Assembly: GCF_000020025.1 (NCBI RefSeq)
Contig: NC_010628.1
Span: 810,001-842,000, forward strand
DNA length: 32,000 bases
Origin: Nostoc punctiforme PCC 73102
GTDB lineage: Bacteria > Cyanobacteriota > Cyanobacteriia > Cyanobacteriales > Nostocaceae
Direction of reading: 5' to 3'
Under the pieces are notes generated by a model, which saw nothing but the letters and a program-made list of their open reading frames with translations, ran no database searches and was not told the origin of the DNA. Made by a program: the position numbers and the translations under genes. Numbering within the stretch: the stretch's first letter is position 1; each line of letters opens with the position of its first letter. Positions 1 through 11,073 of this stretch are shown here, one piece after another.

Positions 1-746
1 GTAATTCCCAAAACAATATCCTGTTGTTGCAGGGTGTCTAGTATGTCGGTACTTTCGTCAATTGCAAACGGTAAGCCTGATTTTGCCAGCAAATCAAGGG
101 AATCACGACACTTACCTTGGCGTGGATGAAACCGGATCAGCAATTTTTTCAAAGGTTTATAGTCAGTTAACACCTTAATTAAGATGTGAAGAATTTCAAT
201 CTCGTTAGCATTGGGTTGAGAAGCAAATAAAATATTTTGTACTACTTCTAGAGTATTTTTTCTAGATTTTTTTCTAGCAACCAACCAAGCAAAATAAGGC
301 TGTCCTACAATGCAAATTCGATTTTTTGGTAATCCATCGGTAAGCATTCCTGTCGCACACACTTCATCTATGGCTGTGATAATATTTGGAAAAATTGCTT
401 CTGCATCAGGATTGTTGAATGGTTGAAAACGCTGACGATAATTTGCCCAATAGTCTATAACAGCAACACTAGGAATACCCTCTTGCCTTGCCCAAAAAAT
501 AGCATCGCGTTCAAACTCATCATTTTGAGATGTTCCTGTTAGCAGAATATCTCCTTTTAATCTCACAAAAAGAATTTGGTGTTCTTCAGAAATTGGCGTA
601 CAAGCAACTGCAAGACGTTGAAATTGACGGATGGCTGGGCCTTTAGCATACGCTTCTACCTCTGTACCTGCTGCCCGCAAGGCTGCAACCGTTGCAGCCA
701 CAGCATTAGCACCGCCTGGATCGTGAGCGATCGCAATAATCTTCAT
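1..746 (-). CDS. Unknown-function protein, N-terminal 248 codons only (gene runs off the left window edge). Possibly a GT-B-like sugar/nonulosonate transferase.
   Basis: It is absent from the ORF track because no stop lies in the window. I translated the minus strand from ATG (746..744) to position 3 without meeting a stop: MKIIAIAHDPGGANAVAATVAALRAAGTEVEAYAKGPAIRQFQRLAVACTPISEEHQILFVRLKGDILLTGTSQNDEFERDAIFWARQEGIPSVAVIDYW...IVGQPYFAWLV...LLIRFHPRQGKCRDSLDLLAKSGLPFAIDESTDILDTLQQQDIVLGIT. Its ATG overlaps the TGA of the upstream DegT gene (tcat at 743-746 = ATGA on the coding strand). The function is a pattern-level guess only. Confidence 0.6.
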   Translation of the reverse strand, partial: MKIIAIAHDPGGANAVAATVAALRAAGTEVEAYAKGPAIRQFQRLAVACTPISEEHQILFVRLKGDILLTGTSQNDEFERDAIFWARQEGIPSVAVIDYWANYRQRFQPFNNPDAEAIFPNIITAIDEVCATGMLTDGLPKNRICIVGQPYFAWLVARKKSRKNTLEVVQNILFASQPNANEIEILHILIKVLTDYKPLKKLLIRFHPRQGKCRDSLDLLAKSGLPFAIDESTDILDTLQQQDIVLGI

Positions 747-2014
747 TTATCTTTTCCTCGACTTAACTCTTCAGCATGAGCCAGGACTTTAGCAACAGAA
801 GCTACGAAACGATCAACTAAGTCAATACCCCCAGGTATTTGGATGAGAGTTGTAGATAAAAGTGTCTCGTTATATGTCTTTTCAGCTATGGGACAGACAC
901 CAGTAGGATGACTGACAATTGTCTTGCCTTCTTGTTGCAGCTTTTGGAAAAGAGGTAGTCTGTATAAAGGACGCACATAACGCCCCGTTAAAGGACATCC
1001 TTCTGCTTGAAGTGCCTCCACAAATCTGTCCCGCGACAATCCAGCTTGTTGTGGATCGATCCAGATGGGATATGTATAGTAAACATGGCGATCGCCACTG
1101 CCAACTTTAGCCGTCCGCAATGCTTTAAACTTAGACAAGCCTTGGTCTAAAGCTTCAGCAATTTTTAGCCGTGGCTGTGTCAATTCTTCCAAACGTTGGA
1201 GTTGAACCTGAGCGATCGCCCCTTGAAGTTCAGTTAAACGGTAATTGTAACCAACAATATCAGCATCTTCATACCAGTTTTCCGCTTCTATTGCGTTCTC
1301 TCCATGATTACGCACCAGTGCTACTCGCCGCGCCAAGTAATCATCATTAGTGACTACAATCCCCCCTTCACCACACTGAATCGTTTTGTGACAATTGAGG
1401 CTGAAAACTCCCAAATGCGCAATTGTCCCCAACCAACGGCCCTGATGCTGACCTCCTGGTGCTTGGGCATTGTCCTCAATTAGAATCAAACCATGTCGAT
1501 CTGCTAATTTACGTAAGCGCACCAGTTGGGCTGGGCCCCCAAACAAATTGACTGCGATAATTGCTTTTGTGCGTGTGCTAATAGCACCTTCAACAGCTTC
1601 TGGATCAATGCAGCAACTAGCCTCCTCATGATCGACAAAAACAGGAGTACCATTTGCCATAACCACTGCTGTTGCCGTTGCTGACATCGTTTGCGGTGGC
1701 ACAATTACCTCATCACCAAAACTAACACCAGCTGCAATCACAGCGGCATGTAAACCACTAGTAGCAGAGTTAACACTCAAAGCGTGACGAACATTAAAGT
1801 AGTTAGCCCATTGTTCTTCTAATGTGCGAACTTGTTTCCCACCCATAAAGTACAGCCCAGCAGCACCGATATAGTCAGATAAAATACCGCTTTTCAATAC
1901 TTGAATCGCGGCCTCTGTCTCCTGAAAACTAGTACTGATATACCTTGGTAATGGCTCTGGAAAAACCTTGGAACCTCCGAGTAAAGCCGGTTTTTCTCTA
2001 GTAATAACCATCAA
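743..2014 (-). CDS. DegT/DnrJ/EryC1/StrS-family PLP-dependent sugar aminotransferase
   Basis: 423 aa ORF. Family hallmarks are SVNSATSGLHAA and the PLP-lysine block FSLNCHKTIQCGEGGIVVTND. It lies 5 nt downstream of the oxidoreductase stop and has an ATGA overlap with the next gene. Confidence 0.85.
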   Translation of the reverse strand: MMVITREKPALLGGSKVFPEPLPRYISTSFQETEAAIQVLKSGILSDYIGAAGLYFMGGKQVRTLEEQWANYFNVRHALSVNSATSGLHAAVIAAGVSFGDEVIVPPQTMSATATAVVMANGTPVFVDHEEASCCIDPEAVEGAISTRTKAIIAVNLFGGPAQLVRLRKLADRHGLILIEDNAQAPGGQHQGRWLGTIAHLGVFSLNCHKTIQCGEGGIVVTNDDYLARRVALVRNHGENAIEAENWYEDADIVGYNYRLTELQGAIAQVQLQRLEELTQPRLKIAEALDQGLSKFKALRTAKVGSGDRHVYYTYPIWIDPQQAGLSRDRFVEALQAEGCPLTGRYVRPLYRLPLFQKLQQEGKTIVSHPTGVCPIAEKTYNETLLSTTLIQIPGGIDLVDRFVASVAKVLAHAEELSRGKDK

Positions 2015-2019
2015 ATTAC

Positions 2020-8924: not shown

Positions 8925-10087
8925 GTCAGGCTCTCTCTTAGCGGAATTACTACTTTATCCTGACTCTCTTCATTTAGCCCATAATATAAGGGGATAGTAA
9001 TAGCTTCCTCGTAGTATTGCTCAACCTTTGGAAAGTCTCCTAATTGAAAACCTAATTTTTGGTAGTAAGGTTGTATATGAACTGGAATGTAGTGCAAATT
9101 CACACCAACTCCTGTGCTGCGAAGTTCTTCAAATATTTGTCGATGAGTTTTATTAATCTTATCCAGCTTGAGCCGAATTACATATAAATGCCAACTAGAT
9201 TCAGAATCAGGGTGTTGCCAAGGTAACATCAGGGGTAAATCTTGTAGTAGCTGATTATATCTTTGAGCTATCAACCGCCGACATTCTACAAATTTATCTA
9301 GTCGTTGTAGTTGACTACTACCCAATGCTGCTTGGATATCTGTCATCCGATAGTTGAAACCTAGTTCTAGTTGCTGATAATACCAAAAACCTTGAGATTC
9401 TCCTTGCATTAAATCTGGATTGCGAGTTATGCCATGACTTCTTAATCTAATTAATCTCTGATACAATTCCTCTTGATTTGTTAGCACCATACCGCCTTCA
9501 CCAGTTGTAATAATTTTTACTGGATGAAAGCTAAAAACTGCCATATCAGAAAATTGACAGGAACCAATAGGTTGTCCTTGATAGCTCCCACCAATCGCAT
9601 GAGAAGCATCTTCGATAATTTTGAAACCATAACGCTGTGATAAAGCAGCAATTTGTTCCATTTCACAAGATTGCCCTGCAAAATGCACGGGTATTAATAT
9701 TTTGGGCAAACAACCTTGCTTTTCTGCCTCAGCTAACTTACTTTCTAATTCATTTACGCTCAAATTATAGGTATTTGGGTTAATATCAACAAAGTCAACC
9801 TTTGCACCACAGTAAAGTCCACAATTAGCTGAGGCAACAAAGGTATTTGGTGATGTCCAGAGAATATCTCCTTGCTCCAAATCAGTAGCAAGACAAGCAA
9901 TATGTAATGCAGCTGTCGCACTAGAAACCGCTACGGCATATTTCGCTCCACAGTAGTTGGCAACAGCTTGCTCAAATCTCTCTATAGCTGGGCCTTGAGT
10001 AATCCAGTCTGAGCGCAAAACTTCAATTACAGCATCAATATCTTCTTGATTAATATCTTGCCTTCCATAAGGAATGTAGTCACTCAT
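8921..10087 (-). CDS. pseC: UDP-4-amino-4,6-dideoxy-N-acetyl-beta-L-altrosamine transaminase (DegT family)
   Basis: The track ORF runs to 10126, but residue M14 ([20 protein letters not shown]...) matches the usual PseC N-terminus. Its ATG at 10087..10085 forms an ATGA overlap with the pseB stop (tcat at 10084-10087). The PLP-lysine block is [20 protein letters not shown]. Confidence 0.85.
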
Positions 10088-11073
10088 TGCTTCAGCATAT
10101 CTAGTAATTGGAAACCTTTTAGCCATTCTGTATTTATCTCAGAGCTATACTCAAACCCTTCTGGAACAGGGATTCCTTTTTCACTTAAAGCATTGCAGGC
10201 ATAATCCACAGAATGAGAATATTCAATAGTTGGTCTAATTACATAATGATCTGAAAACTCCAATACTAAATGTGAAGCCTCAGAAGAAAACATGGCTTCA
10301 TGTAATTTTTCCCCTGGTCTAATACCAACAATTTTAATTGGAACTCCGGGTGCAAGTGTTTCAGCTAAATCGGTAATTTTCATTGAAGGAATCTTAGGTA
10401 CAAATATTTCTCCGCCGTGCATTCGTTCAAAGCTGTTAAAAACTAAATCTACAGCTTGTTGGAGTGTAATCCAAAAGCGGGTCATGCGTGGATCTGTAAT
10501 GGGAATCTCTGGAGATTTTTCTTGAATCAGCTTTTCAAAAAAAGGCACTACTGAGCCTCTTGAACCAACAACATTACCGTAGCGAACTACAGCAAAACGG
10601 GTTTTCATTTCCCCAACAATATTATTAGCTGCAACAAAAAGTTTGTCAGCAGCTAGCTTGGTTGCACCATAGAGATTAATTGGATTAACTGCTTTATCTG
10701 TTGAGAGGGCAATCACCTTTTCTACTTCTTGATCAAGCGCGATATCAATAACATTATTTGCCCCATGAATATTAGTTTTAATACATTCCATTGGGTTGTA
10801 CTCAGCAGCAGGAATATGCTTGAGCGCCGCAGCATGTATAACATAATCGACACCCCGCATTGCCAGACGTAGCCGATCGCGATCGCGCACATCTCCAATG
10901 AAATAGCGCATAACTGGTTCATTAAACTCCTGCGCCATTTCGTACTGCTTCAGCTCATCCCGTGAATAAACTATGACTTTCTGCGGCTGATATCGGCTAA
11001 GAACCGTTTTTACAAATTGCTTGCCAAAGGAGCCTGTACCACCAGTAATTAAAATAGATTTGCCATTAAACAT
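10084..11073 (-). CDS. pseB: UDP-N-acetylglucosamine 4,6-dehydratase (inverting), FlaA1/PseB type
   Basis: 329 aa ORF. It has [20 protein letters not shown], the SDR catalytic [10 protein letters not shown] and [20 protein letters not shown], the classical PseB layout. Confidence 0.9.

Follow-up and report, generated by a model that had tools for sequence, protein, structure and literature searches.

A two-module pseudaminic acid-type nonulosonic acid island in Nostoc punctiforme PCC 73102, with a methyltransferase–WbqC pair in the PseH position and a candidate amination cassette

A stretch of 32,000 nt from the genome of Nostoc punctiforme PCC 73102 (NC_010628.1, positions 810,001 to 842,000 of the forward strand; hereafter, the window) carries at its left end twelve minus-strand genes (1–11073), which are a genuine pseudaminic acid (Pse)-type nonulosonic acid (NulO) island made of two modules, each of them conserved on its own elsewhere. 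Module A (4517–11073) has the order pseB-pseC-CT1-pseG-methyltransferase-WbqC-pseI and Module B (1–4468 plus 232 nt past the window) the order GNAT-CT2-Gfo/Idh/MocA-DegT2-edge gene, whereby CT1 and CT2 are two cytidylyltransferases. The best overall explanation, which we favor tentatively and with slightly less than even confidence, combines a Pse core, a WbqC protein and a methyltransferase in place of PseH, an amination cassette and delivery of the sugar to a pilin. What follows treats as observations the inventory of genes and their families, the modular layout, the substitution of PseH, the synteny and the fold of the edge gene product.

According to a program-made list of open reading frames (ORFs), positions 743–11073 hold 11 complete minus-strand ORFs, followed by a frame at 1–746 that is open at the left edge of the window. 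Intergenic distances and ATGA motifs were read from the reverse complement of the window. In gene order, the gaps are −43 (or −4), −4, 17, 38, 95, 52, 48, 71, 14, 5 and −4 nt, matching the 12 co-directional genes with 5–95-nt gaps reported in a first-pass annotation of the same DNA. The three ATGA overlaps listed there were likewise all read on the minus strand (10084–10087, 8921–8924 and 743–746), the first one depending on the choice of the pseC start. The longest pseC ORF begins at 10126 and shares 43 nt with pseB, and the ATGA at 10084–10087 joins a stop and a start only when Met14 (codon at 10087) is taken as the first residue of PseC. Either start is possible, and Met14 is plausible because the alignment to the PseC model begins at residue 18. 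All 12 products have strong family matches or conserved homologues and are, therefore, real genes and not chance ORFs. Co-transcription of the twelve genes is likely. Scans for promoter and terminator consensus sequences gave counts equal to the shuffled expectation, with no terminator-like site in any of the intergenic gaps, and the Rfam and tRNA scans of the window were empty.

The CMP-pseudaminic acid pathway of Campylobacter and Helicobacter consists of PseB, PseC, PseH, PseG, PseI and PseF. Core functions were assigned with the equivalog models of NCBIfam and the cut-offs of these models (in bits). Four enzymes passed: the inverting UDP-GlcNAc 4,6-dehydratase PseB, encoded by the first gene of Module A (10084–11073; TIGR03589, 538.7 against a cut-off of 407.75), the aminotransferase PseC (8921–10126, with the probable start Met14 at 10087; TIGR03588, 567.7 against 423.5), the UDP-sugar hydrolase PseG (7135–8169; TIGR03590, 254.6 against 153.55) and the pseudaminic acid synthase PseI, product of the sole NeuB-family gene of the island (4517–5569; TIGR03586, 502.7 against 340.25). 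These matches confirm the Pse-type island proposed in the first-pass annotation, and the outcome named there as refuting, a clustering of the dehydratase and the synthase with legionaminic acid (Leg) or Neu enzymes rather than with Pse, did not occur: the island pseB product scored 266 bits on the FnlA and 69 bits on the LegB model, both far under the respective cut-offs, and the pseI product 300.0 bits on the NeuB model, under its cut-off of 399.65.

The further claim that recognizable equivalents of all six Pse enzymes are present was borne out for these four and not for PseH or PseF. On the PseF model (TIGR03584, cut-off 205.7), CT1 reached 28.3 and CT2 33.4 bits. CT1 (8187–8924; CTP_transf_3, PF02348, 100.8 bits) stands in the pseF position and is presumed to be the CMP-nonulosonate synthetase of Module A, an equivalence suggested by its position and by the precedent of SpsF. 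In the Leg pathway of the Bacillus subtilis sps genes, SpsF is a putative cytidylyltransferase, not of the NeuA type, for the activation or transfer of the nonulosonate (PMC7439481). As far as the published description goes, the sps pathway resembles the island also in its UDP-linked precursors and in the PseG-like SpsG; it differs in its product, Leg, and in having no Gfo, second DegT, WbqC or epimerase-like genes. A CT1-type gene follows pseC in L011, L044 and L045 (L-numbers denote comparison contigs or loci), and in L007 it follows a 76-aa pseC remnant; in L046, a 325-aa ORF separates pseC and the cytidylyltransferase gene. Compared with the CMP-Pse clusters of Campylobacter and Helicobacter, the island, thus, shares PseB, PseC, PseG and PseI at the equivalog level, a cytidylyltransferase at the pseF position and the common operon order B-C-F-G-...-I. 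It differs by cytidylyltransferases of the CTP_transf_3 family far under the PseF cut-off, by a methyltransferase–WbqC pair in the slot of the missing PseH equivalog, by five added genes and by a Nostoc host without a flagellum or Maf.

No PseH equivalog was found among the island genes, the sole GNAT reaching 29.6 bits on TIGR03585 against a cut-off of 93.1. This GNAT was rejected as a PseH candidate and belongs to the class of cassette GNATs, which score 33–51 bits on the same model in other loci; its best matches (32–39% identity) are the GNATs directly before the cassette in L009, L010, L011 and L007. A plain textbook pathway to Pse5Ac7Ac, with this GNAT as PseH, one of the cytidylyltransferases as PseF and the rest as loose passengers, is, therefore, very unlikely in our estimation. 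It can draw on the weak PseH match, on the Pfam family PF13302 which the GNAT shares with PseH, and on the presence of only one GNAT in the island. Yet the score is less than one-third of the cut-off, the protein groups with cassette GNATs that co-exist with separate PseH-type domains, and both sets of supposed passengers are kept as ordered units across phyla.

In the island, the slot between pseG and pseI is occupied by a class I S-adenosylmethionine-dependent methyltransferase (6434–7096; Pfam methyltransferase domains) and its partner, a WbqC-family protein (5622–6338). Module A was compared on the contigs of three close WbqC homologues (L044, L045 and L046). The order pseB-pseC-CTP_transf_3-pseG-methyltransferase(-methyltransferase)-WbqC-NeuB/PseI, without a GNAT, recurs in Neosynechococcus sphagnicola (L044) and in L045. 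In L046, which has Maf, the order pseB-pseC-(ORF)-cytidylyltransferase is kept, the methyltransferase–WbqC pair comes after a weak PseG-like ORF, no GNAT is present and a NeuB-family gene lies about 6.8 kb downstream of the pair. The two genes of the pair often overlap in these loci. The island methyltransferase is 63%, 53% and 42% identical to the one directly upstream of WbqC in L044, L045 and L046, respectively, and the island WbqC is 44–60% identical to its three counterparts. In the sister Nostoc species (L012), the same slot holds a PhyH dioxygenase and a GNAT which is a true PseH (155.9 bits), and in another Nostoc (L013), PseG is fused to a GNAT. Since the methyltransferase–WbqC pair sits in the PseH slot, and elsewhere too does so without a GNAT, it takes the PseH position in a recurrent variant of Pse clusters. 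In L044 (1160–8908), pseB, pseC, the cytidylyltransferase gene and pseI are each split into two ORFs in an otherwise syntenic Module A, reflecting either cluster decay or sequencing frameshifts.

The WbqC protein matched PF08889 over its full length (236.6 bits, residues 9–227 of 238). The family name probably derives from the Escherichia coli O121 cluster, for an O-antigen with N-acetylglycyl-Qui4N, a sugar with an N-acyl group at the same position of a 4-amino-4,6-dideoxyhexose. A literature search for WbqC found nothing relevant. Together, WbqC and the methyltransferase would equip the UDP-sugar at its 4-amino group, which corresponds to N7 of the final acid, with a substituent other than acetyl that is probably methylated.

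The six genes beyond the textbook pathway had been taken as a sign of a further-modified nonulosonate or of a second activated sugar. The idea of a further-modified sugar stands, but these genes are no loose set: the methyltransferase and WbqC belong to Module A, and the others, together with the GNAT, make up one cassette. Module B begins with the cassette-class GNAT N-acetyltransferase (3788–4468; PF13302) and continues with the second CTP_transf_3 cytidylyltransferase CT2 (3006–3716; PF02348, 92 bits), an NAD-dependent oxidoreductase of the Gfo/Idh/MocA family (Gfo; 2020–2991), a second DegT-family aminotransferase (DegT2; 743–2014) and the 2-epimerase-like GT-B edge gene (Epi; 1–746). CT2 is 68–81% identical to the cassette cytidylyltransferases of L004, L007 and L009–L011 and 44% identical to CT1; in L004, the cassette cytidylyltransferase is the only one in the locus. 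The genes for CT2 and Gfo are 14 nt apart in the island and overlap by 4 nt in L007 and L009. Gfo (PF01408, 70.5 bits) has the GxGxxG and EKP motifs and is 44–71% identical to its cassette orthologues; it weakly matched the archaeal UDP-GlcNAc 3-dehydrogenase model NF040723 (45.8 bits, cut-off 450), and a PDB search returned only generic family members. A protein search with the oxidoreductase found it encoded on 24 assembled contigs. DegT2 (PF01041, 292.9 bits) retains the pyridoxal phosphate lysine motif (FSLNCHK), scores 223.4 bits on the PseC and 193 on the LegC model, both below the cut-offs, and is 62–83% identical to cassette orthologues and 27% to the island PseC. In the PDB, it was matched best by ArnB, perosamine synthase and KdnA, the transaminase of Kdo8N synthesis, with 167–180 bits for ArnB and KdnA (KdnA 167) and 127 for WbpE.

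Members of the edge-gene family were always found within the succession (GNAT)-CTP_transf_3-GFO_IDH_MocA-DegT-edge gene, as in Calothrix (L009), in L010 and L011, and in the flagellated bacteria L004 and L007, where Maf and flagellin genes adjoin the cassette. A scan of a genome collection revealed a diverged form (25–32% identity) with the order CT-Gfo-Epi-DegT-GNAT in many phyla. It lies beside PseB, PseC or NeuB-family genes in Akkermansia, Gastranaerophilales, Holosporaceae, Desulfovibrionaceae, Termititenax, Muribaculaceae, Saccharibacteria, Rhodospirillales, Magnetovibrio and an uncultured Campylobacter sp. (L043). The core is much less conserved between loci than the cassette, with 39–52% identity for PseC and 28–39% for PseG. 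In other Nostoc, L004 and L032, the cassette acyltransferase is a FemAB-like Acetyltransf_6 protein accompanied by a methyltransferase, with Gfo, DegT and Epi constant, and in L010, L011, L012, L013 and L030, an acyltransferase or formyltransferase in the PseH position stands alongside the cassette acyltransferase. Wherever the flank of a cassette locus extends far enough, PseB is present; out of five tested, four exceeded the cut-off and one fell just short of it, with 399.7 against 407.75.

Some cassette loci carry additional genes or gene fragments. Directly after the epimerase-like gene, two other Nostoc genomes (L014, 10978–11148, and L022, 10966–11229) have short PseI-like fragments (45–49% identity, about 60–90 aa). 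These seem to be the remains of a second gene of the NeuB family, so that Module B may in the past have travelled together with a synthase of its own. In the unrelated loci L011 (11022–13618) and L030 (12891–15459), one and the same pair, an unannotated protein of about 396–399 aa and an amidase (PF01425), comes after the cassette, and Ca. Campylobacter infans (L036) has an unannotated ORF of 377 aa behind its cassette GNAT. These unannotated proteins and the amidase may represent a further tailoring step.

We infer all chemical steps of WbqC, the methyltransferase and Module B, as well as the acceptor. By analogy, Module B may turn a hydroxyl group of a CMP-nonulosonate into an N-acetylamino group, a possibility to which we give somewhat less than even confidence. 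CT2 would make the CMP-linked acid, Gfo would oxidize one of its hydroxyls to a ketone, DegT2 would transaminate this ketone, and the cassette GNAT would acetylate the new amine. The product would be a tri-N-acylated NulO, 41.03 Da above the di-N-acyl parent. The oxidized position would be C8 by analogy with the ElaABC system of Acinetobacter baumannii KL49 and Vibrio vulnificus, and C4 is also possible. There, the CTP-transferase ElaB makes CMP-Leg5,7Ac2, ElaA (Gfo/Idh/MocA) oxidizes the C8 hydroxyl, and ElaC, a short-chain dehydrogenase/reductase (SDR), reduces the ketone to give the 8-epimer; according to its authors, ElaABC is a discrete, horizontally transferred module (PMC13656337). Both systems are discrete mobile modules on a NulO pathway, and in both (ElaABC being compared by its description) a CTP-transferase is followed by a Gfo/Idh/MocA protein and then by a ketone-acting enzyme. 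In comparison, Module B has no SDR, the third enzyme being a DegT aminotransferase that would act where ElaC would reduce the ketone; it adds an N-acyltransferase and a 2-epimerase-like GT-B protein, and its parent sugar is of Pse type, not Leg.

The cassette acyltransferase is swapped between loci with Gfo, DegT and Epi unchanged, as one would expect if the acyl group goes onto an amine that has just been introduced. The co-existence of this acyltransferase with a PseH-type one in several loci and the near-constant PseB also support amination. Amination of the Pse precursor at C3 on the UDP level was set aside because C3 of the hexose becomes C6 of the acid, its hydroxyl closing the pyranose ring. 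As the C3 hydroxyl is the only free one on the UDP-hexose precursor, this chemical reasoning, too, speaks for a modification of the CMP-linked acid. A comparable sequence of steps exists in Kdo8N biosynthesis of Shewanella, performed by the oxidase KdnB and the transaminase KdnA (PDB 5k8b): a side-chain hydroxyl of a 2-keto-3-deoxy sugar acid is oxidized and then transaminated, and KdnA is among the best DegT2 matches. However, KdnB is an iron-dependent alcohol dehydrogenase and not a Gfo/Idh/MocA protein, the substrate is an eight-carbon acid, and ArnB and perosamine synthase match DegT2 equally well. The broadest form of the proposal, in which Module B is a widespread unrecognized route to tri-amino nonulosonates and the Nostoc version bears a WbqC/methyltransferase group instead of the N7-acetyl on a type IV pilin, is rather unlikely as a whole.

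The last gene of Module B is cut by the window edge, leaving the N-terminal 248 of 325 residues, and its start overlaps the DegT2 stop in the third ATGA. The gene leaving the window had been suggested as the likely transferase; instead, it proved to be a conserved 2-epimerase-like component of the cassette. About a dozen Nostoc genomes, many of which were assembled from metagenomes, encode homologues of the edge protein at 74–95% identity, and the Calothrix homologue is 71% identical. It gave no Pfam or NCBIfam match even at an E-value of 0.1 and no sequence match in the PDB. An AlphaFold (AF2) model, built on the 95%-identical homologue P0001 with an alignment of 24 family members, had a pLDDT of 92.1 and a pTM of 0.89. 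The top seven PDB matches in Foldseek were all nucleotide-sugar 2-epimerases (TM 0.62–0.74, best E-value 1.7e-11, 13–16% identity), with glycosyltransferases ranking below the UDP-GlcNAc 2-epimerases. In a profile search of the PDB, the family matched only the WbpI-type UDP-2,3-diacetamido-2,3-dideoxy-glucuronate 2-epimerases (E-value 3.7e-7, partial), and its invariant RFHPRQ aligns with the HPR motif of these enzymes. Among 1.84 billion representatives, the family profile retrieved 1261 50%-identity clusters at E ≤ 1e-30 and 4164 at E ≤ 1e-10. As judged from the structure model, the edge protein is a GT-B protein remotely related to UDP-sugar 2-epimerases, from a large family without a Pfam model. 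It would bind a nucleotide sugar and may hydrolyze or epimerize a UDP- or CMP-linked intermediate. A diverged PseG was considered and rejected, since hhalign against the island PseG gave a probability of 1.4%, i.e., no relation. A distant relative (P0040), fused to a GNAT, occurs in a NeuB cluster of L005/L006 together with two radical-SAM enzymes (one of them B12-binding), WbqC, a Maf-TPR protein and a methyltransferase, and this cluster is one more elaborate locus for the tailoring of nonulosonates.

The relatives of the edge protein bring up a different use of the cassette. WbpB, WbpE, WbpD and WbpI form the established route to UDP-ManNAc3NAcA, and structures of WbpI-type enzymes are available (8sxw and 8sy9). 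Module B has the same succession of enzyme classes (Gfo/Idh/MocA, DegT, N-acetyltransferase and 2-epimerase-like GT-B), so that Gfo, DegT2, GNAT and Epi might follow the same logic of C3 oxidation, transamination, N-acetylation and 2-epimerization to produce a UDP-2,3-diacetamido-2,3-dideoxy-hexose for the same glycan as Pse, leaving CT2 as merely a second CMP-Pse synthetase. The exclusive PDB match of the edge family to the 2,3-diacetamido glucuronic acid 2-epimerases, the weak match of Gfo to the archaeal UDP-GlcNAc 3-dehydrogenase model, the Ca. C. infans cassette standing without a cytidylyltransferase and the several glycosyltransferase domains of a giant protein encoded downstream (see below) all fit such a second sugar. 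We nevertheless regard it as quite unlikely. The cassette is nearly always beside PseB and a NeuB-family synthase, usually includes a cytidylyltransferase tightly coupled to Gfo (the 4-nt overlap in L007 and L009) and, in the flagellin island of L007, has Maf as the only visible transferase. Furthermore, WbpD is a left-handed beta-helix acetyltransferase, whereas that of Module B is a GNAT or FemAB-like; WbpE matches DegT2 less well than ArnB or KdnA does; no UDP-sugar 6-dehydrogenase (WbpA) is found among the 12 genes or in the leftward extension; and the edge protein, unlike WbpI, has no Pfam Epimerase_2 match, at an identity of only 13–16%.

A third class of cassette loci brings up another possible role of the cassette. 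In L007, L032, L038 and L039, a PseB-type dehydratase (in L039 just under the cut-off) is accompanied by an RmlD-like reductase and by a synthase of the NeuB family that can be assigned to neither PseI nor NeuB. Only for L032 was an AP_endonuc_2 protein confirmed, and PseC, PseG and PseH are lacking in all four. The cassette could be a parallel branch in which two different 5,7-diamino nonulosonates are made from the PseB product, one through PseC, methyltransferase–WbqC, PseG and CT1 and the other, a stereoisomer, through DegT2, GNAT, an Epi-like hydrolyzing 2-epimerase and CT2, with PseB and PseI shared and Gfo as an epimerizing oxidoreductase. This agrees with the four functional pairs in the island (DegT enzymes, acyl-transfer systems, GT-B nucleotide-sugar enzymes and cytidylyltransferases), with the four loci above, which offer only DegT2 and the Epi-like protein for the PseC and PseG steps, and with the fold of the edge protein, which suits a hydrolyzing 2-epimerase of the NeuC/LegG type. 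An aminotransferase acting on the 4-keto product of PseB, however, needs no oxidoreductase, and yet Gfo is invariant in the cassette. The RmlD-like reductase of the L032 class would use up the 4-keto intermediate, the window has a single synthase of strict PseI type, and L004 has only one cytidylyltransferase. On balance, such a branch seems unlikely to us, but we retain it, like the separate UDP-diacetamido hexose, as a live rival of the amination model.

Beyond the window, the contig L001 is 100% identical to positions 1–11600 and reaches 8 kb further left. It completes the edge gene (325 aa), after which come a 178-nt gap, a gene for a 2289-aa protein (L001 12022–18891) and, convergently, a gene for a 736-aa TPR+GT41 protein. 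The leftward extension recommended in the first-pass annotation has, thus, placed the candidate transferases outside the window. The N-terminal domain of the giant protein weakly matched the KpsC/KpsS-like Capsule_synth family (PF05159, 13 bits against a cut-off of 20, E-value 0.071) and is homologous to a 517-aa protein beside pseB in Akkermansia L030 (BLASTP 4e-10), itself at 26.1 bits on PF05159. A GT4/GT1 domain lies at 1099–1421, and the C-terminal part combines TPR_11 (1740–1770, 30.7 bits) with Glyco_transf_41 (109 bits over two stretches, the best being 2092–2272). Calothrix encodes the first two segments after the cassette as a protein of their own (904 aa), and in L013, the place of the giant gene is taken by that of a 1160-aa protein with a weak polysialyltransferase-like match and GT41. 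Between about residues 1430 and 1720, the giant protein has two internal repeats of about 180 aa without a family match, each opening with IIIFPDWSQSEE; the shorter proteins of other Nostoc and of Calothrix have just one such repeat. Maf (PF01973) was not found among the genes of L001–L003; it is present beside the same modules in L004, L005, L007 and L046. The activated sugar would be used by the giant multi-glycosyltransferase.

The convergent TPR+GT41 gene encodes a highly conserved cyanobacterial OgtA-type protein (65–89% identity across genera). In 12 Nostoc and Calothrix loci, the gene directly before this ogtA-like gene was found to encode a type IV pilin whose C-terminal half is rich in Ser and Thr. 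L022 has two tandem pilin copies (18821–20056) before the ogtA-like gene by the island. Cyanobacterial Ogt glycosylates PilA, 77 of 201 cyanobacterial genomes have ogt next to pilin genes, and ogtA of N. punctiforme is needed for PilA accumulation (PMC9306852). Moreover, FlmG is a TPR + GT-B enzyme which transfers Pse to flagellin (PMC7591256). Like FlmG of Caulobacter and the cyanobacterial Ogt/OgtA, the giant protein ends in TPR+GT41; it differs from them by its additional KpsC/S-like and GT4 domains. On the other side of the comparison, Ogt of S. elongatus uses UDP-GlcNAc, no flagellin is encoded at the Nostoc island, and the acceptor is here a predicted one. Since related genomes have the pilin–ogtA pair next to the island, we regard the pilus as the foremost candidate for the acceptor, with type IV pilin as the most likely target on grounds of synteny.

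Several points weigh against the favored combination of a Pse core, WbqC/methyltransferase in place of PseH, an amination cassette and pilin delivery. The AF2 model of WbqC (pLDDT 93) gave no significant fold match in the PDB, and a gene for PseH may lie in another part of the genome, or the cassette GNAT may serve both purposes. The edge protein is without a clear role in a purely CMP-level scheme; the PDB relatives of its family act on UDP-2,3-diacetamido sugars, so that a UDP-level pathway of the WbpB/E/D/I type fits it at least as well. In Ca. C. infans, the set Gfo-Epi-DegT-GNAT stands alone, with neither a cytidylyltransferase nor pse genes nearby, and in L007, L032, L038 and L039, the cassette DegT and Epi, as the only candidates, might replace PseC and PseG. 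No tri-amino nonulosonates are reported in the literature searched, which makes the prediction novel and leaves it without precedent. Finally, the pilin is known from the related genomes and was not seen for the strain of the window, a search with the C-terminus of the GT41 gene returning fragments only.

The conservation of the island at the DNA level was examined by blastn of the window against the sister Nostoc species L012, which is 95% identical on the flanks. Identity was 89.7% from 9872 to 7324 (pseC, CT1 and most of pseG), 81.8% from 5575 to 4527 (pseI) and 94.3% from 3724 leftwards (Module B, into the giant gene). In comparison, no DNA homology was seen from 7324 to 5575 (methyltransferase and WbqC) and from 4527 to 3724 (GNAT). 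The GC content is 0.34 in 3724–7324 against 0.41–0.46 in the flanks, and the GC at third codon positions (GC3) is 0.22–0.26 for the methyltransferase, WbqC and GNAT genes. Since the breaks in homology coincide exactly with this low-GC central zone (3724–7324), the accessory acyl- and methyl-transfer genes are strain-specific replacements in a conserved frame, a pattern typical of diversifying surface-glycan loci. Such a strain-specific exchange in the middle of the island has the appearance of diversifying selection acting on the surface sugar made there.

Pse clusters and Ela-type tailoring are already known. The literature searched did not describe the Pse-cluster variant with methyltransferase–WbqC for PseH, the aminotransferase-bearing cassette with its Pfam-less epimerase-like family, or the joining of both modules beside pilA–ogtA in a symbiotic Nostoc, and a search for a Gfo+DegT+cytidylyltransferase cassette had no match. 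Nonulosonic acids shape the recognition of surfaces by phages, predators, hosts and immune systems, and small tailoring modules generate their diversity; the island exposes two such modules, conserved across many phyla and without assigned chemistry. If the cassette does aminate the sugar, it would define a new class of bacterial sialic acid-like sugars, to be expected in gut Akkermansia, Campylobacter and Melainabacteria as well as in flagellated environmental bacteria. The position of the island beside pilA–ogtA also provides a concrete hypothesis for the unknown glycan of Nostoc pili, which are needed for hormogonium motility and hence for the symbiosis with plants and lichens.

On the right side of the island, a 144-aa ORF with a predicted membrane helix and a weak TPR-like C-terminus (Pfam E-value 0.004–0.008) lies on the same strand 59 nt upstream of pseB (11133–11567); it may open the transcription unit as its first gene or have nothing to do with it. 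It is followed by a 1.2-kb stretch (11568–12798) without an ORF above 72 aa. Further on (12799–16122, minus strand), the gene of an FHA-domain Ser/Thr protein kinase (424 aa, with a 4-Cys prefix motif) adjoins that of a double-zinc-ribbon PP2C phosphatase (664 aa), which looks like a signaling pair directly upstream of the island. Between a LarC-like nickel-insertion gene and a Sua5/YrdC gene, positions 20119–20236 hold the heptamer tandem repeats ATTAGTC (seven copies) and CCCAGTC (six copies), which resemble the short tandemly repeated repetitive sequences of Nostocales. A 422-aa ORF with a TTG start (21245–22513, plus strand) had no Pfam match at E ≤ 1e-4. The gene of a D12-class N6-adenine DNA methyltransferase (23361–24218, minus strand) lies in a sharply low-GC patch (GC 0.337 and GC3 0.23, with about 0.44 in the surroundings) and overlaps an unannotated 164-aa ORF (22895–23389, plus strand); it may be a horizontally acquired orphan methylase or a remnant of a restriction-modification system.

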